From assembly GCA_964534625.1 (NCBI GenBank), contig CAZHRF010000010.1:12004-76003 (forward strand): a stretch of 64,000 nt of DNA, written 5' to 3'. How positions within the stretch are numbered: the first letter of the stretch is position 1; every line of letters starts with the position of its first letter. Below the pieces are notes generated by a model. The model made no database searches. It had not been told where the DNA came from and saw nothing but the letters and a program-made list of their open reading frames with translations. The position numbers were made by a program, and so were the translations under genes. Of the stretch, positions 46,728 through 56,968 are shown in pieces. Source of the stretch: an uncultured archaeon (GTDB lineage Archaea > Asgardarchaeota > Heimdallarchaeia > Heimdallarchaeales > Heimdallarchaeaceae).

Positions 46728-48185
46728 TTATCCTTTAATGTTACCTATAGGTCTTAATCTTACTATAGGTTTTCCTATATTAGCCACCTTTAATGCTTTA
46801 ACAACTTTATCAATGTCTTTATAGGCTATACCAGCTTCTTCAGCTAGACCGGCCATTGAAGCTCCCTTTATGTAGATGCCTTTTTCTCTTAATTCTTTCA
46901 GAAGTGTTTCTCCCCATACTTCTCTCTTTGCTTGACTTCTACTCATTGTTCGTCCAGCACCATGAGCAGTTGAACCAAAACTAACATCCATAGATCCTTG
47001 AGTTCCAGTTAAAACATATGAACCTGTTTCCATTGAACCTCCAATTAAGACTGGTTGTCCGATGTTTTGGTAATCTTTAGGAACTTCTGAATGATTTGGT
47101 GGGAAAGATCTAGTTGCCCCTTTACGATGAACTACAACTTTACGTTTTTCGCCATTAATAGTATGATCTTCAAATTTAGCAATGTTATGAGCAACATCAT
47201 AAACTAGTTTAATGGCAAGTTCATCTTGATCTTTTCCAAAAACTTCAGAAAATACTTTTCGAACATTATTGGTTATAACTTGTCTATTTGCAAAGGCCAT
47301 ATTAGCTGCACAACTCATAGCTGCGTAATAATCTTGTCCTTCTTCAGACTGAATAGGAGCACTAGCTAATTCTTTATCTCTAATTGGTATATTATATTTC
47401 TTCATTGCTTTAAGAAAAGACCTTAGGTAATCAGATCCAATTTGATGTCCAAAACCCCTAGAACCACAATGTATCATAATTGTAACATTACCAGGTTTCA
47501 GATTCAATTGTTTAGCTATTTTTTCATCAAAAACATCATTTTCACTCAAAGTTTGTATTTCTAAAAAGTGATTACCAGAGCCTAATGTTCCAACCTGTTT
47601 ATAACCCCGATTCATTGCTTTTTGACTTACTGCCGCGGGATTCGCTTGTTCAAGATGTCCTTCATTTTCTGTGTGTCTAACATCTTCTTTAGTCGCATAA
47701 CCATTTTCTTCACACCACTTTGATCCTCGTGTTATAACCCCTTCAAACTCTGATTTACTAATATGTAAAGCCCCTTTTACACCCACACCAGCTGGAACCT
47801 GTTGAAAAAGTTTTTCAACTAAATGTTTAATTTTAGGCCTTACTTCATCTTCGGCAAGATTAGTTGTCAATAATCTTACACCACAATTAATATCAAATCC
47901 TATACCTCCTGGGCTTATAACTCCTTCTTCTATATCCATAGCTGCAACGCCTCCAATTGGAAAACCATATCCAACGTGGGCATCGGGAAGTGCCAAAGAA
48001 TAATTTTGAACACCAGGTAAAGTAGCTACATTGGTTATTTGGTCAATGACTTTTTTTTCAATAAATTCCTTAATTTCAGGTGTAGCAATAATTCTGGCAG
48101 GAACTTTCATTCCGTTCTTGTAGGAAGTGGGGATTTCCCATGTAAAATCGTTAATTTTCTTCATTTGTATATTATCTAATGACAT
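46728..48185 (-). CDS. rtcB: RNA-splicing/repair ligase RtcB
   Basis: PDAHVGYGFPIGG, DINCGVR, GTLGSGNHFLE, HCGSRG, HNIAK, HRKGAT, STAHGAGR. Confidence 0.97.
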   Translation of the reverse strand: MSLDNIQMKKINDFTWEIPTSYKNGMKVPARIIATPEIKEFIEKKVIDQITNVATLPGVQNYSLALPDAHVGYGFPIGGVAAMDIEEGVISPGGIGFDINCGVRLLTTNLAEDEVRPKIKHLVEKLFQQVPAGVGVKGALHISKSEFEGVITRGSKWCEENGYATKEDVRHTENEGHLEQANPAAVSQKAMNRGYKQVGTLGSGNHFLEIQTLSENDVFDEKIAKQLNLKPGNVTIMIHCGSRGFGHQIGSDYLRSFLKAMKKYNIPIRDKELASAPIQSEEGQDYYAAMSCAANMAFANRQVITNNVRKVFSEVFGKDQDELAIKLVYDVAHNIAKFEDHTINGEKRKVVVHRKGATRSFPPNHSEVPKDYQNIGQPVLIGGSMETGSYVLTGTQGSMDVSFGSTAHGAGRTMSRSQAKREVWGETLLKELREKGIYIKGASMAGLAEEAGIAYKDIDKVVKALKVANIGKPIVRLRPIGNIKG

Positions 48186-48323
48186 TAATCTCAAACTGTA
48201 GTAAACTTTATTTTTTAATAAACTCTGTCATTCATCAGTTTTTTGTAAATTCTCATCCATCAAAGTATTTTTTAAAAACTGCTAATATTTTTTATTCAAT
48301 AGAATAGTATAAATGTGATAGAT

Positions 48324-48755
48324 ATGTATAATATCAATATTTTAGAAGATAGAATTATTGGTGACTTCGAGTTTGAAGTTACCGCTGATTCGCTTAATGA
48401 ATTGTTTACGGGTGCGGGTATTGCTACGGTTAAAGCAATGGTAGATCCTACTTCAATCAGTAATAATAAATCATGGAAAATAGAACTTGAGGAACAAGAT
48501 TTAGAATTTTTATTATTTGATTTCTTAAACGAGATTATAGCATTAAAAGATAGTAAAACTGTTCTTTTTAGAGACTTTAGTGTAGATATATCAAAATCTG
48601 ATGAAATGTATATACTTAAAGCCAGTTTTCATGGAGATAAAATAGATTATAATAATACCTCATTATTAACTGATGTAAAAGCTGTTACAATGCATGAATT
48701 TATCGTTGAAAAAAGAGATGAAATGTGGTTTTGTCACGTTATACTTGATTTATAA
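48324..48755 (+). CDS. Archease
   Basis: LLFDFLNEII and DVKAVTMH...VILDL C-terminus; adjacent to rtcB. Confidence 0.92.
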   Translation: MYNINILEDRIIGDFEFEVTADSLNELFTGAGIATVKAMVDPTSISNNKSWKIELEEQDLEFLLFDFLNEIIALKDSKTVLFRDFSVDISKSDEMYILKASFHGDKIDYNNTSLLTDVKAVTMHEFIVEKRDEMWFCHVILDL

Positions 48756-48872
48756 ATGAACCCTCACGTTATTCTATGTTGAATTTTTTTACACAGTAGT
48801 TGCTTGATAAAACTTTTAAGTAAACTATCTAACCTAGAACACGATTCAGAGAATCATATGAGGTAAACAAAA

Positions 48873-49283
48873 ATGACTGATGTAATAAAAGTTTTAGATA
48901 AATATAGCGTTAGAAAAGACTGTTTGTACACTGAAAACCACGAATGGGTTCGCAAAGAAGGCGAAATCTACATTTATGGGATTTCCGACTATGCTCAACA
49001 AAAACTTGATGCATTAACTTTTGCAGAAGTTCCTGACGAAGGTTCTTCTTTTGATAAAGGAGAGGATATGGGTTTTGTCGAAGCACTAAAAACAACCGAA
49101 GACTATTATGCGCCTTTTGACTGTGAAGTTGTTGAAGCTAACAAAGACTTAGAAGAAGATGCTGAAGTTATAAATGATTCACCCTATGAAGATGGATGGA
49201 TTGTTAAGATCAAAGCATTAGGTGAAGTAGAAGGATTACTTTCAGCTGAAGATTACGTAGAATTTATTAAAAATAATGAATAG
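48873..49283 (+). CDS. gcvH: Glycine cleavage system H protein
   Basis: YTENHEWV, GISDYAQ, lipoyl-Lys in VEALKT, INDSPYEDGW. Confidence 0.95.
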   Translation: MTDVIKVLDKYSVRKDCLYTENHEWVRKEGEIYIYGISDYAQQKLDALTFAEVPDEGSSFDKGEDMGFVEALKTTEDYYAPFDCEVVEANKDLEEDAEVINDSPYEDGWIVKIKALGEVEGLLSAEDYVEFIKNNE

Positions 49284-49296
49284 GAGCAAAAACTCT

Positions 49297-50691
49297 ATGA
49301 ACAATTTTTCGCACCCTTATCTTGGCAATTCTTCACAAGATATTCAAGAAATGCTAGATTTTTTAGGACTAAAATCTGTTGAAGATCTTTTTGCAGATAT
49401 TCCTGACTCAATCAAATTTAAAGGAAAACTAACCAAAATCCCTCATTTTACGAGTGAATATGACGTTCTTCAACACATTGAAAAAACTCTCGCAAACAAT
49501 ATAACAACTCGAGAGTTTCACTCATTTTTAGGGGGCGGAATTCTTGACGTATATATTCCAGCTTCACAAGACGAACTACTACGCCGTTCTGAGTTTTATT
49601 CTGCATATACACCGTATCAACCCGAGATAAGCCAAGGTATGCTTCAAAGTTTATTCGAATATCAGAGTTATATGTGTGAATTATTAGAGATGGACATTTC
49701 TAACTCTTCATTATATGATTGGGCAACAGCACTAGGTGAATCTGCCCTTATGTGTGCACGTATAACTGGAAAAAACAAGTTCTTATATACACAAGCTATT
49801 TCTCCGCACAGATTGAAAGTTTTGGAGAACTACACCAAAGGGGCAGATATACAATTAATACCAATTCCTTATAATCCGACTACTGGAAAAATGGATATTG
49901 AGAAGGCTAAAGAATTAATTGATGATGAAACAGCTGGAGTGTATTTTGAGAATCCAAACTATTTTGGGATAATTGAAGACAATATCCAGGAGATTACAGA
50001 TTTTCTTAAAGATAAAAAAGCCTTAGCAGTAGCAGGAGTTGAACTTTCGACTCTTGGAATTATGGAAGCACCAGGTAATTATGGTGCAGATGTAGCAATT
50101 GGAGAAGGACAAACAATTGGTTCAGGACCGTTAAGTTTTGGAGGACCACTACTTGGGGTATTCACAATGAAATTTGAAAGAAGATGGATACGCCATGCAC
50201 CAGGTAGAATTGTAGGTCAAACCATCACTCAAAATGAAGGAGAAGTTGCATACGTAAATACATTACAAACACGAGAGCAACATATACGAAGAGAAAAAGC
50301 AACAAGTAATATCTGTACTAATCAAGCATTAGCCGCTGTTAGTACAACCATCCACTTGTCATTGCTTGGACCTCAAGGTCTTCGAGAAACGGGTGAAAAT
50401 ATGTATTATAATGCCCACTACTTGGCTGATGAGCTAAGAAAAGCAGGAATAGATCTAAAATATTCTGGGGGATTTTTCAATTCGTTTGTGATAGATTTGA
50501 ATATTGCAGAGAATATCAGAGAAGATTTTGTCAAGTACATGATTAGTAAAAAGATTTTCCCGGGCATTCCAATACTCAATGAAGATGGTTCTGCGGATTA
50601 TTTAGTTACTACTAGTTATTTGTTAAAAAAGGATAGTCTGGATACATTTGTTAAAGCATTAGTTGAATGGAGGAATGGAAATGGAATATAG
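49297..50691 (+). CDS. gcvPA: Glycine dehydrogenase subunit 1
   Basis: YTPYQPEISQGMLQ, SLYD, FGGP, LQTREQHIRREKATSNICTN. Alternative start at 49276. Confidence 0.96.
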   Translation: MNNFSHPYLGNSSQDIQEMLDFLGLKSVEDLFADIPDSIKFKGKLTKIPHFTSEYDVLQHIEKTLANNITTREFHSFLGGGILDVYIPASQDELLRRSEFYSAYTPYQPEISQGMLQSLFEYQSYMCELLEMDISNSSLYDWATALGESALMCARITGKNKFLYTQAISPHRLKVLENYTKGADIQLIPIPYNPTTGKMDIEKAKELIDDETAGVYFENPNYFGIIEDNIQEITDFLKDKKALAVAGVELSTLGIMEAPGNYGADVAIGEGQTIGSGPLSFGGPLLGVFTMKFERRWIRHAPGRIVGQTITQNEGEVAYVNTLQTREQHIRREKATSNICTNQALAAVSTTIHLSLLGPQGLRETGENMYYNAHYLADELRKAGIDLKYSGGFFNSFVIDLNIAENIREDFVKYMISKKIFPGIPILNEDGSADYLVTTSYLLKKDSLDTFVKALVEWRNGNGI

Positions 50692-52186
50692 ACAAGCAAG
50701 GCACAATGAACCACTAATATTTGAGCTAAGCAAAAAGGGGAGAAGAGCATCTTTTCCAACACAGACAGATGTTCCAAAAAAAGATATCACTATACCCAAA
50801 AATATGCTGAGAAAAAACTCACCTTTACTACCAGAAATGAGTGAAGGAGAAGTTTATCGCCATTTCTTGAAACTCTCACAAATGAATTATGCAATTGATG
50901 TGGGAACTTACCCATTAGGCTCTTGTACAATGAAATTCAATCCAAAAATTAACGAAACAGTAGCGAGATTACCAAAAATAGCATATACACATCCCGCACA
51001 ACCTTGTGAAACTGTACAAGGAGTTCTAAAAATCTTGTATGACCTTCAGAATGCTTTAAGTGAATTAGCAGGTCTACCCCATTGTACTCTTCAACCAGCT
51101 GCAGGTGCTCAAGGTGAATATGTTGGATTAGCACTAATTCGAGCATACCATCATGATCATGGCGATACGCAAAGAGATGAAATTATTGTTCCTGATGCTA
51201 GTCATGGTACTAACCCAGCTAGCTCGTCCATGAATGGGTTCAAAACCATTGTAATTTCAACCAACGAGAAAGGACAAGTTGATCTTGATGAACTCAAAGC
51301 CGCTGTATCAGAGAAAACAGCGGGATTAATGTTAACTAATCCCAATACTATTGGTATCTTTGAATCCAAAATTGAGGAAATTGCAAAAATTGTTAAGGAA
51401 GAAGGTGGGCTTTTGTACTATGACGGTGCGAATTTTAATGCGATAATGGGGAAAATCCGTCCAGGTGACATGGGATTTGATGTATTGCACTATAATCTAC
51501 ATAAAACTTTTTCTACACCTCACGGCGGTGGTGGTCCAGGGGTCGGGGCAGTTTGTTGTTCTAATGAACTTGCTCCATATTTACCAATTCCTATAATAGA
51601 AATTGATGATGAAAAAGGCATTTATACAGCGAATTACGAGAAACCGAAGTCTATAGGAAAAATCCATGGGTTCTATGGTAATATAGGCGTATGTATAAGA
51701 GCATATGCATATATTTGCGCCTTGGGTAAAGAAGGACTGAAAAAAGTGGCAGAACATGCTGTTCTTGTTTCTAACTATATGTTACGAAACATGGAGAAGA
51801 TTGAAGGGCTAAACTTAACTTATGCTCCAGAGACCCCTCGAAAACACGAATTTGTCCTTTCTGCAGATGAACTTAAGAAAGAATATAACATTTCAGCAAT
51901 GGATGTTGCCAAACTGTTATTAAATAAAGGTTTGCATGCACCTACAGTTTATTTCCCCTTGAACATACATGAGGCATTGATGGTTGAACCAACAGAAAAT
52001 GAAAACAAAGAACGAATAGACGCATACGTCAAACTCTTAAAAGAAGAAATAGACAAAGCTAAAAAAGATGAAGAATATGCGCATCAAGCACCCAAAAACA
52101 CAGCTATTGGTCGTGTAGATGATGTATATGCTGCACGCAATTTCTTACTTTCTTGGAGATTGATAAAGCAAAAAAAGAACAAATAG
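50681..52186 (+). CDS. gcvPB: Glycine dehydrogenase subunit 2
   Basis: PLGSCTMKFNP, QPAAGAQGE, HGTNPAS, YYDGAN, NLHKTFSTPHGGGGPG, EPTE. Confidence 0.96.
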   Translation: MEYRQARHNEPLIFELSKKGRRASFPTQTDVPKKDITIPKNMLRKNSPLLPEMSEGEVYRHFLKLSQMNYAIDVGTYPLGSCTMKFNPKINETVARLPKIAYTHPAQPCETVQGVLKILYDLQNALSELAGLPHCTLQPAAGAQGEYVGLALIRAYHHDHGDTQRDEIIVPDASHGTNPASSSMNGFKTIVISTNEKGQVDLDELKAAVSEKTAGLMLTNPNTIGIFESKIEEIAKIVKEEGGLLYYDGANFNAIMGKIRPGDMGFDVLHYNLHKTFSTPHGGGGPGVGAVCCSNELAPYLPIPIIEIDDEKGIYTANYEKPKSIGKIHGFYGNIGVCIRAYAYICALGKEGLKKVAEHAVLVSNYMLRNMEKIEGLNLTYAPETPRKHEFVLSADELKKEYNISAMDVAKLLLNKGLHAPTVYFPLNIHEALMVEPTENENKERIDAYVKLLKEEIDKAKKDEEYAHQAPKNTAIGRVDDVYAARNFLLSWRLIKQKKNK

Positions 52187-52221: not shown

Positions 52222-52689
52222 TTATCTTCTTTTTTCAACTGGAGGATTGAAGAAGACAGCAATTATTAATAAAATACTCATTCCAATTACTTCTTTTAGA
52301 GCTATATTATTTGCTAGATCTTCAGGCATTCCCTCACGAAAAACTTCAATCGCTTGAAATGCAAAGAATATAACAAGAATCTGAATTAAAAGATATAATA
52401 TTATGGCTAGTGTCCCACCACGTAAAATGTATTTCCAGACCAGCTCATCTGTAGGATTACGATTGCGGCTCATCAAATAATCACTGATTAACAAACCTAC
52501 AGCTGTTAACCCAATTGCACCAAAGATAGGAAAAGCTATCAATAACGCTACATAGCCTTCTTGGTTCAATTTCATAATTTCACTTAAATAATAATAATGG
52601 GGTAATTGCGCTAAAATTGACATTGCTAATAAAGCCAAAATTGTAGGCAAACCAGTTGTACGATTCCAAATTTTTATTTTATTACTCAT
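52222..52689 (-). CDS. Membrane protein
   Basis: 155 aa with four TM helices. Confidence 0.7.
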   Translation of the reverse strand: MSNKIKIWNRTTGLPTILALLAMSILAQLPHYYYLSEIMKLNQEGYVALLIAFPIFGAIGLTAVGLLISDYLMSRNRNPTDELVWKYILRGGTLAIILYLLIQILVIFFAFQAIEVFREGMPEDLANNIALKEVIGMSILLIIAVFFNPPVEKRR

Positions 52690-52850
52690 ATTAACAGCCC
52701 TTTTTCTTCTTTGCTACTTACACTAGTCGTTTTTTTAAAACTTTTGATGAAGATTATAATGTTTACTGTCGATGAGCAGTACAAGAATAACACTATTTCT
52801 TAATAGTTGCAAGCTAAAATCAAATCAAATCTAAAAAGAAAGATTTTTTC

Positions 52851-54413
52851 TTATGGTGCATCATCGTGTCCCTCGAAATAGTATCCTTTTTCTATTCTAA
52901 ATTCGCAATATTTGTATCCAGTTCCATGGCACTTTGTTTCTGTCACTATTGGGGGTTCCTTTAAGAGTAGAGATAACCTCCCAGCAATATATCCAGCCAT
53001 GAAATCACATAATGTCTCATTAAGGTTGGTTTCAGATAAATCAGCACCAGAAGCATATGCACATTCATATATGCGGATATACATTTCATCTTCATCTTCA
53101 CCATCATAAATCTCAACAAATGAGTATTCTCTTTTAAGAATATTTGATGGATGAATTAGATATTTATGAAGAAATTCAACCGCTTCTTTCAATGAATCTA
53201 GCGGGAGTTTCTCTGCATCTAGAATTTCATAAATAATATTCTTACCAGGTCCTACAATACCCAACTCTCTTGCTGCTGTATAGAGAAGAGCTGCACAATA
53301 CTTATCTCGAAATTTCAAGGACATAATCTGTTGTTGTAACGTACTAATATGAACATAATCAATATCATTTGGTCTCAACTTTTCTTTCATCATTAATGAC
53401 GCATAGCCATTTTTCATTGTTTCATGAATTAACTCGTAAAACATTTGTTTTCTGTACTCTTCAGCTGGCATGTCTCCAAAAAATTTAATTGTTTTATCTT
53501 CTTCTGATATTTCATGTTTTTTATAAGGGGCATATCCGGGTTCTTTGCCGATATATACGTTTATTTCAAATTCACAATATGGCGCTCCCAACCCCTTACA
53601 ATTTGTTTCAACTACACGGGTTGCAGAACCAAGCATTGCTTCAACAGTACCAGCTATTTCTCCTGCTATGAAGTGACAGAGAGTTTCACCAACATTTATT
53701 GCACCAGCACTATTAACCAAATCATATATACGTAATTTAGCCCTATATCCGTCTAATTCAGCCACATCAGTTTGTGTTGCTAAGTATAGTGGAATTTCAC
53801 TATTGTGACTATAAAGTTTAGCTAATCCAATTAAAACTTCCTGAAATCTTTCAGCAGGATTAATAGTACCAACTTTTGCATTCAAAACAGTAAGATAAAA
53901 AGGAAATGCACCATAAGTCCCTAGTTCGCGACCAGAGAGATAGAGTAATTGAGGAACAAGCGGATCTAATGAAAGTAATGATAATAAAACTTGCTGATAC
54001 ACAGAGATATGACAGTAATCCCCAATATTTTCGCGTAAAAGTTCTTGAGAGATTATACTATCTATAGTATTTTTTGTGAGAACCATCATTGATTCTTTAC
54101 GTCGCGTATGACGTTCTTGAGAAACCATTGTGGGTAAAATTTTTGACCAAATTCGTTCCCGTATTACATCTTCAGTAATCATTCCTTGTGCTAAGATTTC
54201 ATTATTCATCATTAAAACAGGTACGGACATGATTCCATATTGATTTGCTATTTCTTGTTCTTCTGAAATATCAATCTTGGACACATGAATTGTATCTTGC
54301 ATAGATAATCCTACTACTTGTTCGACGATACGTTCAACTTCTGGACAAGCAAAACAAGTTGGACTGGTGAATAAAAGCAATCTTATTTTCTCTGACATAT
54401 CTTCATTTGACAT
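52851..54413 (-). CDS. Thioredoxin-V4R-V4R fusion protein
   Basis: N-terminal FTSPTCFAC...SVP thioredoxin. Two V4R domains: LCHFIAG..ETNCKGLGAPYCEF and LCDFMAG..ETKCHGTGYKYCEF. Confidence 0.88.
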   Translation of the reverse strand: MSNEDMSEKIRLLLFTSPTCFACPEVERIVEQVVGLSMQDTIHVSKIDISEEQEIANQYGIMSVPVLMMNNEILAQGMITEDVIRERIWSKILPTMVSQERHTRRKESMMVLTKNTIDSIISQELLRENIGDYCHISVYQQVLLSLLSLDPLVPQLLYLSGRELGTYGAFPFYLTVLNAKVGTINPAERFQEVLIGLAKLYSHNSEIPLYLATQTDVAELDGYRAKLRIYDLVNSAGAINVGETLCHFIAGEIAGTVEAMLGSATRVVETNCKGLGAPYCEFEINVYIGKEPGYAPYKKHEISEEDKTIKFFGDMPAEEYRKQMFYELIHETMKNGYASLMMKEKLRPNDIDYVHISTLQQQIMSLKFRDKYCAALLYTAARELGIVGPGKNIIYEILDAEKLPLDSLKEAVEFLHKYLIHPSNILKREYSFVEIYDGEDEDEMYIRIYECAYASGADLSETNLNETLCDFMAGYIAGRLSLLLKEPPIVTETKCHGTGYKYCEFRIEKGYYFEGHDDAP

Positions 54414-54478
54414 ACTGCTTTCTAAAATATCAATCCTCTTTTAAACTATAAACATTTCCTATTGGGAAAAATTAACGT

Positions 54479-55366: not shown

Positions 55367-56098
55367 ATGTACGATAGAACAAGAAGAAACAAACCTTCCA
55401 GGATAGTTGAAGTTCCTATCCCGTCTGATGTATGGGATATCTTAGAAGATCTTATTATGACCTATGGGAATAAAGAAGAAGCAATCATTGAATCTATTAA
55501 AGGGCATCATGAACAGTTATATGGTTCTGATGCACAACCCAAACCCGAACAATCGCCTGAAGACGAGTATGAATATGTTCGTATGCCTAAAAAAACTGAG
55601 AGGCACATAACAGATGGGAGATGGGAGAAGATTACAGAAAATGGTCAAAAGATGCGAATGAGGACAAATGAAGAACTGGAAAAAGTTGATGAATTACTAG
55701 AAAAAGTAAAAACGCTTTTTGAACAGAAAAAACAAGAAGCAAGACCTCAAACACCCATTAATGATAACGACAAAATAAACGAGCTTATTCGAAAAGTAGA
55801 TAATTTATCTAAAATATCCGATTTATCTAGTGAAATTAATTCAATAAAATATTTGCTCCGCAATATGGGCTCAGGAGAGATCAGTAGAAAAGGAAAACGA
55901 GCAGATCTTTCATCTCTAGAAATAAATTTGTCAAAAGGTATAGATCCATCAATAACTTCTCCAGAGCGTCCTTTACTTGAGACAGCTTTAGACAGCATAC
56001 TACTATTTGATGATGAGGATTTCGATGAAGAGTTAGAGACAGAGAAAAATCCAGAAGGAGAAAAAAAGGGAGGATCTGATGAAAAAAATAAAAATTAA
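55367..56098 (+). CDS. Hypothetical coiled-coil protein with acidic C-terminus
   Basis: 243-aa ORF with typical composition and GAGG RBS. Confidence 0.7.
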   Translation: MYDRTRRNKPSRIVEVPIPSDVWDILEDLIMTYGNKEEAIIESIKGHHEQLYGSDAQPKPEQSPEDEYEYVRMPKKTERHITDGRWEKITENGQKMRMRTNEELEKVDELLEKVKTLFEQKKQEARPQTPINDNDKINELIRKVDNLSKISDLSSEINSIKYLLRNMGSGEISRKGKRADLSSLEINLSKGIDPSITSPERPLLETALDSILLFDDEDFDEELETEKNPEGEKKGGSDEKNKN

Positions 56099-56110
56099 AT
56101 TAACACAAAA

Positions 56111-56641
56111 CTATTTTTTTATAGCTTGTTTCACTAAACTATGAGCTAAATCTCTAAAAGCCTCATCCACATGGTCACCAGTAAGTGCACTAGTTTTTAT
56201 GAACTTTTTACTAGCAATTGATTCAACAAGTTCTTTACACTCTTCATCAGAAACAGATATTTTATCAGTTAAGTCTTTCTTATTTCCCACAACAATAGTG
56301 ACAACATTAGGTCCACAAATCTCGACAAGTTCTTTATTCCACTCTTTCAAATCTTGAAGGGTTGATTCTCTTGTCAAATCAAAAACCAGTAATGAAGCTT
56401 TGGCACCTCTGAAAAAATTATGCCTAATGAATTTAAAACGGGATTGTCCAGCTATATCCCATATAGAAAGGGCTACAAGTGTGCCATTCTCCAATTCGAT
56501 ATACTTCTCGCTAGGTTCCATACCTATTGTTAATAAATAATTTTGAGAAAACTTATCATGAATAAAACGTTGGACAAGTGATGTTTTACCAACTGCAGCG
56601 GCACCAAGTAATACTACTTTGAAATTATAGTCGGGATGCAT
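56111..56641 (-). CDS. Rab-like small GTPase
   Basis: FKVVLLGAAAVGKTS, TIG, WDIAGQSRF, FFRGA, GNKKD, TSAL; no C-terminal Cys. Confidence 0.93.
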   Translation of the reverse strand: MHPDYNFKVVLLGAAAVGKTSLVQRFIHDKFSQNYLLTIGMEPSEKYIELENGTLVALSIWDIAGQSRFKFIRHNFFRGAKASLLVFDLTRESTLQDLKEWNKELVEICGPNVVTIVVGNKKDLTDKISVSDEECKELVESIASKKFIKTSALTGDHVDEAFRDLAHSLVKQAIKK

Positions 56642-56668: not shown

Positions 56669-56968
56669 TTATACTGTTCTGGCATTTTCTAATTCTTGTT
56701 CCAAGCTTTCTAAGAAGTATTTCTCAAATGAACCATCTGCTCTTTTAATTGTAGTCAGTGAGATACATAAATCAAGAACAAAATCATATTTATCTTTTTC
56801 ATTTGATGAATACTTGTAAGCTTCTAATCTGGATTGAACTATTTTTGACATTTTTGATGCTTCTTTTTTATCTATATTACCTTGTTTATACTCAGAAAAT
56901 ATCTCTTGCATTATACTTAAAGCATCATCTGTCGTTTCTATTTTTTTGGGTATAGAAAACTTATTCAT
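56669..56968 (-). CDS. Hypothetical helical protein, likely co-transcribed with the GTPase
   Basis: 99-aa ORF 27 bp upstream of the Rab-like gene on the same strand. Confidence 0.65.
   Translation of the reverse strand: MNKFSIPKKIETTDDALSIMQEIFSEYKQGNIDKKEASKMSKIVQSRLEAYKYSSNEKDKYDFVLDLCISLTTIKRADGSFEKYFLESLEQELENARTV

Follow-up and report, generated by a model that had tools for sequence, protein, structure and literature searches.

A thioredoxin domain joined to two V4R units

The DNA analysed here, called the window below, is a stretch of 64,000 nucleotides from an uncultured archaeon of the Heimdallarchaeaceae (contig CAZHRF010000010.1). The sequencing runs listed for it are of microbial-mat DNA only. 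On its reverse strand, at positions 52851-54413, lies an unbroken open reading frame (ORF) for a protein of 520 amino acids in which a thioredoxin domain is followed by two V4R units (Table 1). The product is a soluble protein of about 59 kDa.

In Pfam, the Thioredoxin_3 model matched amino acids 17-86 (E = 5e-9), with matches to Glrx-like and Thioredoxin as well. The V4R model (PF02830) matched two stretches, well above its gathering threshold (E = 5.3e-27; 94.1 bits versus 31). No further domain was found by Pfam in the 520 amino acids: AAA+ sigma-54 activator domains and DNA-binding output domains were absent, and the H-NOX family was not among the Pfam hits at E values up to 1. NCBIfam has no model for the full-length fusion family. 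Its sole match to the V4R part was the MsvR model NF053755 (E = 5.9e-14; 52 bits versus a cut-off of 220), and neither Pfam nor NCBIfam detected a DNA-binding domain.

The preliminary description of this DNA had read the gene as a CFAC thioredoxin plus two homologous V4R units without an output domain. This reading is borne out by the intact ORF, by the Pfam matches, which are confined to thioredoxin-type domains and V4R, and by the similarity of the two units (about 195 amino acids each, 36% identity, E = 7e-26). The ligand pattern described for each unit, C...E-x-x-C-x7-C-E-F, was found in both as C-x22-E-x2-C-x7-C-E-F. The shared segments R-x-x-I-G-D-Y-x-H-I-S...Q-Q and L-L-Y-x-x-x-R-E-L-G were likewise present in the alignment of unit 1 with unit 2. 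Judged from the sequence, chance is ruled out as the source of this architecture and motif pattern.

Table 1. Features of the fusion gene and its surroundings, in positions of the window (aa, amino acids; nt, nucleotides)
Feature	Position	Strand	Basis
Whole gene, thioredoxin-V4R-V4R protein, 520 aa	52851..54413	-	ORF list, translation, Pfam, homologue clusters
Thioredoxin domain, aa 7-95, MJ0307/Mt0807 type	54129..54395	-	Pfam, TIGR00411, PDB profile, fold match
CxxC motif, C20-F-A-C23 then Pro	54345..54356	-	Residue conservation
P65, cis-proline of the thioredoxin fold	54219..54221	-	Invariant in alignments
Long connecting helix, aa 81-121	54051..54173	-	DSSP on full-length model (H81-121, pLDDT ~61-79)
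V4R unit 1, full Bet3/V4R fold, aa ~122-290	53544..54050	-	Pfam V4R; MopR/PoxR superposition
Putative zinc-site tetrad of unit 1: C246, E269, C272, C280	53574..53678	-	Alignment to PoxR/MopR
Variable linker between units, aa 291-320	53454..53543	-	Low pLDDT, many indels in alignments
V4R unit 2, aa ~321-510	52884..53453	-	Best Pfam V4R stretch aa 446-508; superpositions
Putative zinc-site tetrad of unit 2: C469, E492, C495, C503	52905..53009	-	Spacing as in unit 1
TTTATA, candidate archaeal TATA box, ~39 nt upstream of ATG	54447..54452	-	Sequence reading
T-rich tract after stop codon, possible archaeal terminator	52812..52843	-	Sequence reading
Four-helix membrane protein, 155 aa, no Cys, no family, downstream	52222..52689	-	Context
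Rab-like small GTPase, 1.7 kb upstream	56111..56641	-	Pfam Ras, E = 3.8e-45

Duplicated V4R units with a zinc-type site

The identity between the two units extends beyond the short V4R model of Pfam to the helices with R-x-x-I-G-D-Y-x-H...Q-Q and L-L-Y-x-x-G-R-E-L-G. In unit 1, residues R127, G131, D132, Y133, H135 and Q140 were invariant. In a tree, every copy of unit 1 fell into one clade and every copy of unit 2 into its sister clade (SH-aLRT 90 for the pair and 98 for unit 2). Thus, one ancient duplication, which predated the split of these lineages, gave both units.

When unit 1 was used as a single sequence in a phmmer search of PDB sequences, there were no matches, and a profile of both units was required. 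In this profile, the two tetrads aligned residue for residue with the Cys, Glu, Cys and Cys of PoxR and MopR. The corresponding zinc ligands in DmpR are C151, E172, C177 and C185 (PMC7264223). Both tetrads are predicted to bind zinc. The profile alignment and the tree place the units with the general archaeal zinc type of V4R.

Across a 30-sequence set covering all clades, C272 and C280 were always retained and the other zinc-site residues were present in nearly all members, with Asp in place of C246 in a few. The unit 2 tetrad was kept in most members and degenerate in a few divergent ones. In both units, the three cysteines (C246/C272/C280 and C469/C495/C503) have the C-x25-C-x7-C spacing of C206/C232/C240 in MaMsvR.

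The thioredoxin domain

The thioredoxin domain resembles the small archaeal thioredoxins MJ0307 and Mt0807 (PDB 1FO5 and 1NHO) in its length of about 85 residues, its CxxC followed by Pro and its cis-Pro loop. Its PDB profile match was 1FO5 (E = 6e-14), and its fold match was a thioredoxin of T. thermophilus (Z 13.2, root-mean-square deviation (rmsd) 1.7 Å, 88 residues). The NCBIfam model TIGR00411, 'MJ0307 family thioredoxin', gave E = 3.4e-16 but only 59.1 bits, below the cut-off of 92.75. By this score, the domain counts as a relative and not as an equivalog. MJ0307 and Mt0807 are free-standing redox proteins, whereas this domain is fused to V4R units.

The two cysteines, C20 and C23, were invariant in all 19 aligned proteins, as was P65. 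Every full-length member of the 30-sequence set had the CxxC and the cis-Pro, while the two residues between the cysteines drifted freely. Among the full-length relatives examined, which reach down to about 30% identity, none had lost the CxxC, the cis-Pro or C272/C280. The preliminary description would have given way if the CxxC had not been conserved; both of its cysteines proved invariant in the full-length relatives. Retention of the CxxC together with the cis-Pro despite drift of the middle residues is a pattern typical of a working redox site.

Predicted structure of the tandem

The AlphaFold2 model of the full-length protein was moderate in quality (pLDDT 72.8, pTM 0.65), with a helix of about 40 residues joining the thioredoxin to unit 1. 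The tandem alone, modelled from a 35-sequence alignment, reached pLDDT 91.3 and pTM 0.91. It has the two-layer alpha/beta fold common to Bet3 and H-NOX, as seen in Z scores of 12-13.5 to MopR, PoxR, MJ1460, Bet3 and Thor-TRAPPC3. The best fits were those of Thor-TRAPPC3 (Z 13.5, rmsd 2.8 Å, 151 of 156 residues) and Bet3 (Z 13.4), within a range of 13.3-13.5 for the Bet3/TRAPPC3 family, followed by MopR (Z 12.9) and PoxR (Z 12.2). These top matches, including MJ1460, were effectively tied, and H-NOX was lower (Z about 10-10.7).

MopR and PoxR superposed on model residues 15-204, that is, unit 1, and MJ1460 and mouse Bet3 on residues 217-415, that is, unit 2 (Z 12.0-12.4). MopR, PoxR and MJ1460 each covered one contiguous unit, unlike the Thor-TRAPPC3 and Bet3 monomers, whose best superposition ran over residues of about 25-413 and combined the N-terminal helices of unit 1 with the core of unit 2. 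Because these monomers fit best across both units, the units are predicted to pack through their N-terminal helices in the manner of a Bet3-family dimer, as a pseudo-dimer. This interface is a prediction from the superposition results. Dimers of Thor-TRAPPC3 and PoxR are packed through N-terminal helices (PMC10933270), and the sensor-domain dimer of DmpR is likewise interlocked via N-terminal segments (PMC7264223). The earlier suggestion of a single-chain pseudo-heterodimer analogous to Bet3-family pairs thus gains support at the level of the model, from the tandem prediction and the across-unit superposition.

A fold and packing like those of a Bet3 dimer might also be expected of a structural proto-TRAPP scaffold. 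Here, the tandem would stand for a Bet3-Trs33/Trs31 pair in a GTPase-regulating complex, and the thioredoxin fold would be a docking module with metal-binding or structural, non-catalytic cysteines. The GTPase, Roadblock and longin-like neighbours in several Asgard lineages, described below, fit such a scaffold. We regard it as improbable, however. The Pfam TRAPP_Bet3 model did not match the fusion protein at E values up to 1, its V4R units are of the general archaeal zinc type, and the joint conservation of CxxC and cis-Pro is what a working redox site typically shows.

Distribution in Asgard archaea

A word-indexed search found 36 homologue clusters with 35-97% identity; the organism names given were all Heimdallarchaeota, Heimdallarchaeaceae or 'Asgard group'. 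An exhaustive profile search gave 41 representatives at E values up to 1e-30, and the named ones included Hodarchaeales and Jordarchaeales. A scan of species genomes gave 52 loci, including those in both complete Ca. Heimdallarchaeum genomes and in Borr- and Sif-type genomes.

We then counted full-length copies by family in 400 genomes of the phylum. In the window's class, they were present in about 29 of 30 genomes of family f1, 3 of 3 of f3, 10 of 12 of f4, 19 of 22 of f5 and 12 of 12 of f7. Four further Asgard families also held them. There were none in the large families f20 (135 genomes), f31 and f12. In brief, the fusion family was found only in Asgard archaea, is near-universal and mostly single-copy in the window's Heimdall-type class, and occurs also in Jord-, Borr- and Sif-type genomes.

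In the databases, its members are named 'V4R domain-containing protein', 'thioredoxin family protein' or 'predicted hydrocarbon binding protein'. A search of the literature on V4R with Asgard, thioredoxin or KaiC found no description of the fusion architecture or of the Loki-type cluster treated below. The preliminary description had not recognised the architecture as characterised and had counted a widespread and already characterised family as an outcome against it. The family is widespread, within Asgard archaea only; in Pfam, NCBIfam and the literature searched it is uncharacterised. The protein joins known kinds, V4R/Bet3-fold proteins and thioredoxin fusions, in an uncharacterised combination.

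The source genome has further V4R-like genes. One, of 221 amino acids, lies on the same strand as a Ras-family GTPase gene and two genes downstream of it (L005, G000 contig C52: 2-1770). A second, of 184 amino acids, is convergent with the gene of a Bcp-type peroxiredoxin (L006, G000 contig C23: 673-2046). Two more V4R ORFs, of 301 and 426 amino acids, are on contigs C15 and C28.

Gene neighbourhood of the fusion

In the window, the TTTATA before the ATG and the T-rich tract after the stop codon suggest that the gene is monocistronic, with its own promoter separate from that of the upstream PIG-L gene. Upstream come a PIG-L-family deacetylase gene in the orientation of the fusion gene, then an acidic coiled-coil ORF that runs the other way (243 amino acids, no family; 55367-56098, forward strand), and then the Rab-like GTPase gene. 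An ORF of 99 amino acids without a family (56669-56968, reverse strand) precedes the GTPase gene in the same orientation at a distance of 27 bp, so that an operon of the two is possible. At the place that the PIG-L-family gene takes in the window, many same-family genomes have a thermosome (group II chaperonin) gene, oriented divergently to the fusion gene (L025:5769-7424, L018 and L038).

Downstream, the gene for the four-helix membrane protein carries its own TTTTAAAAAA element. It adjoins the fusion gene in all same-family loci that reach past the 3' end of the fusion gene, and not outside that family. Beyond it is a housekeeping block (46728-52186) of RtcB and archease genes, which are divergent, and then GcvH, GcvPA and GcvPB, with family-wide synteny with the fusion gene. 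The membrane protein was rejected as a functional partner because its synteny at the family level is shared equally with the Gcv, archease and RtcB genes and because it apparently has its own promoter.

In several other lineages, the fusion gene or a paralogue adjoins GTPase or Roadblock genes. In genus g13 of f4, a Rab-like GTPase gene was 186-707 bp downstream of the fusion gene in 2 of 2 genomes. In f5, 4 of 5 loci had a divergently adjacent Roadblock/LC7 gene at 284-476 bp. A paralogue in f33 had three Roadblock-like genes 2.3-3.5 kb upstream. In f32, a tandem-V4R paralogue of 475 amino acids lacks the thioredoxin CxxC, and its second metal site is degenerate. Its gene begins 3 bp beyond one of 320 amino acids that encodes an unknown N-terminal domain plus a Ras-family GTPase (G397, L134:5571-7964). 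This genome holds the canonical fusion, too.

A different neighbour was found in f7, one Heimdall-type clade: in 10 of 11 loci, the gene directly downstream of the fusion, in the same orientation, encodes an AhpC/TSA peroxiredoxin. This arrangement would fit a role in oxidative-stress defence, in which the thioredoxin domain reduces a Bcp/PrxQ peroxiredoxin or other thiol enzymes and the V4R pair is a regulatory or peroxide-sensing appendage. The V4R-like gene beside the Bcp gene in the source genome would fit as well, and V4R regulators of the MsvR type act on oxidative-stress genes (PMC3729527). We consider this role quite unlikely. The peroxiredoxin link was limited to the one clade and was absent from the window's own family, and two conserved V4R units would be superfluous in a plain reductant.

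A split form in Loki-type genomes

Family f20, which lacks the fusion, has the two parts as separate genes; most of its members are deposited under the names Promethearchaeota, Lokiarchaeota or Promethearchaeia. A V4R gene of 159 amino acids was present in 26 of the 31 sampled genomes. In 15 genomes of 8 genera, it was part of a same-strand cluster with the order Ras-family (Rab-like) GTPase, thioredoxin, V4R and second Ras-family GTPase (E = 1e-41 for the first GTPase and 2e-47 for the second). The thioredoxin has about 95 amino acids, and its motif is CxPC in most genomes. The gaps among the first three genes were 11 and 47 bp in L125 (L125:3572-6136). About half of the loci examined had a protein with a zinc ribbon and a transmembrane segment between the V4R and the second GTPase. 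TBP usually follows the cluster (loci L121-L130, L113, L114, L117, L119 and L120).

The gene order, thioredoxin then V4R, is the domain order of the fusion. The fused and split forms have complementary distributions, and the Loki thioredoxin's best match in the source genome was the fusion thioredoxin domain. According to a structural survey of the field, the GTPase genes of MK-D1, a Loki-type isolate, are generally outside operons with Roadblock, longin or TRAPPC3 genes, and the partners therefore cannot be matched from the genome (PMC10933270).

The word 'stand-alone' in the preliminary description does not hold up well against these loci. The split genes sit between two Rab-like GTPase genes, and several lineages with the fusion adjoin GTPase or Roadblock genes. 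Because of this conserved cluster and these neighbours, an output through a protein partner is more likely than no output.

Other Asgard families have related gene sets. In f30 and f31 (L135-L140; for example, L140:4111-7059), the free thioredoxin closest to the fusion domain has the motif CAFC-P, and its gene overlaps the start of two KaiC-like ATPase genes. It was preceded by a Roadblock gene in 4 of 6 loci, and a Rab-like GTPase gene was 1-2 genes off in 6 of 6. The complete genomes of f9 (L131:5320-9321 and L132:4874-7367) have arrays of 3-4 single-unit V4R genes of 193-234 amino acids, which adjoin a longin-like gene (sub-threshold in Pfam) and a KaiC-like gene. In L131, a pair of MglA-like GTPase and Roadblock genes is about 2 kb from the array. 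This gene set recalls the fold inventory of the TRAPP core.

Comparison with known V4R and Bet3-fold proteins

MsvR, the V4R regulator of the methanogens M. thermautotrophicus and M. acetivorans, shares the three cysteines with their spacing and is the only NCBIfam model that the V4R part matches. The fusion differs in having no DNA-binding domain, in having two V4R units plus a thioredoxin, and in its score of 52 versus 220 bits. In MaMsvR, C206, C232 and C240 govern redox-dependent DNA binding (PMC3729527). Oxidised MsvR is reduced by the thioredoxin system of M. acetivorans, according to a statement in PMC7278568 that cites Sheehan et al. 2015.

The sensors DmpR, PoxR, MopR and XylR (XylR_N plus V4R) have the same fold (Z 12.2-12.9) and the same Cys-Glu-Cys-Cys site, and their dimers interlock via N-terminal segments as predicted for the two units here. 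They are bacterial phenol-sensing sigma-54 activators with AAA+ and DNA-binding outputs, and they form homodimers with neither a tandem nor a thioredoxin. Among the V4R proteins with a solved structure, the stand-alone archaeal protein MJ1460 (PDB 2OSO/2OSD) matched best in sequence (E = 4e-7), and it superposed on each unit (Z 11.4-12.0). It is a single unit of unknown function in which His replaces the first Cys of the metal site.

Bet3/TRAPPC3 and the Asgard protein Thor-TRAPPC3 (PDB 7YH2 and 7YH3) were the best structural matches and form their dimer via two N-terminal helices, and the tandem is predicted to mimic a Bet3-Trs33/Trs31-type pair. Eukaryotic Bet3 has no zinc site and carries palmitate on a cysteine. 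The fusion differs from it in its zinc-type sites and in its lack of a TRAPP_Bet3 match. Thor-TRAPPC3 binds zinc and has internal cavities (PMC10933270). TRAPP consists of separate chains with longin subunits and is a Rab exchange factor, whereas the fusion is tied to GTPases and Roadblock by gene neighbourhood only.

Relatives in the V4R, Bet3 and H-NOX families have an internal cavity that takes up small hydrophobic ligands (PMC10933270). The fusion protein might, by this likeness and its fold matches, be a self-contained redox-gated binder or carrier of a small molecule, close to the stand-alone redox-gated sensor of the preliminary description. Its V4R pockets would hold a hydrophobic ligand or cofactor, and the thioredoxin would gate binding and release or reduce the ligand, with no dedicated GTPase partner. 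The invariant polar residues D132, Y133, H135 and Q140 of unit 1 could line such a pocket, most fusion loci have no GTPase neighbour, and the gene looks monocistronic in the window. On the other hand, a ligand carrier leaves unexplained the GTPase-thioredoxin-V4R-GTPase cluster conserved in 15 Loki-type genomes and, in f32, the tandem-V4R paralogue that shares an operon with a GTPase gene, and no candidate ligand pathway recurs beside the gene. On balance, we think this rather unlikely, if worth keeping in view.

A possible redox switch in small-GTPase modules

We tentatively favour a combined mechanism, possible rather than probable, in which a V4R pseudo-dimer carries a thiol/zinc redox switch and signals to small-GTPase modules. 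The zinc-thiolate sites would be the redox-sensitive element. The built-in thioredoxin would reduce these sites or a bound partner, or swap disulfides with them. The redox change would then alter the conformation of the pseudo-dimer or its ligand pocket. As its output, the pseudo-dimer would contact another protein, and the most plausible partners are Ras-superfamily small-GTPase modules (Rab-like GTPases and Roadblock).

The domain fusion, the form with adjacent genes and the MsvR precedent suggest that the thioredoxin may target the V4R thiols, or that it and V4R may together target a shared partner. Redox gating is plausible by analogy, with MsvR as the closest precedent. The sole basis of the output to small-GTPase modules is gene neighbourhood. 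The architecture, the residue conservation, the single duplication and the prediction of dimer-like packing are well supported, and the phyletic pattern and the split form within a GTPase gene cluster were observed directly. That the protein binds zinc, is redox-active, passes electrons in a particular direction and has a GTPase partner is what we infer.

Several observations weigh against this switch. The zinc site of DmpR and PoxR is regarded as structural rather than as a switch. In the full-length model, the placement of the thioredoxin relative to the zinc sites was not confident (pTM 0.65). Most lineages with the fusion had neither a GTPase nor a Roadblock gene close by, namely the window's own family (28 loci), f7 and the Jord-type and Borr/Sif-type loci. 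Ras-family GTPase and Roadblock genes make up about 1-1.6% of the genes in these genomes, and their enrichment near the fusion was mild (p of about 0.03-0.04 by a post-hoc binomial estimate over about 11 lineages) and is suggestive only. As evidence, gene neighbourhood is strong in the case of the split form and patchy in that of the fusion.

The Rab-like GTPase of the window is a case in point. It was near the fusion gene in none of the 28 same-family loci. Among the matches to the f4 GTPase beside the fusion gene, to which it is non-orthologous, it ranked only 10th. It was rejected as a conserved neighbour for these two reasons, and its closeness to the fusion gene is probably coincidental.

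The link between the split and the fused form has weak points as well. The reciprocal match of the Loki thioredoxin won by a narrow margin (E = 3.4e-7 versus 1.3e-6 for the next), and the Loki V4R had as its only match in the source genome unit 1 of the fusion, at E = 0.049. In the tree, the Loki V4R was a long branch, and non-Asgard V4R proteins were closer to the fusion units. The tree therefore gave no support to the Loki-type V4R as their nearest single-unit relative; a V4R of Hydrothermarchaeota was among the closer ones. Because of this long branch, the closer non-Asgard proteins and the weak or narrow reciprocal matches, orthology or equivalence of the two forms is likely, not proven.

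V4R is thought to be ancestral to the Bet3 subunits of TRAPP, an exchange factor for Rab1 and Rab11. A more specific version of the GTPase link can be proposed, in which the thioredoxin-V4R module is a redox-controlled regulator of Rab-like GTPases (exchange factor, GTPase-activating protein or adaptor). It would be a prokaryotic forerunner of the Bet3-family dimers of the TRAPP core, and the tandem would be a single-chain Bet3-Trs33/Trs31 heterodimer. We consider this version unlikely.

For the redox switch in general, the gene fusion is independent support for a functional link between thioredoxin and V4R, for which the evidence had hitherto come from MsvR alone. The Loki-type cluster names a concrete set for tests, namely one V4R, one thioredoxin and two GTPases, and it bears on the statement in PMC10933270 regarding the GTPase operons of MK-D1. 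If the GTPase link is true, GTPase signalling in the archaea most closely related to eukaryotes would have redox state as an input.

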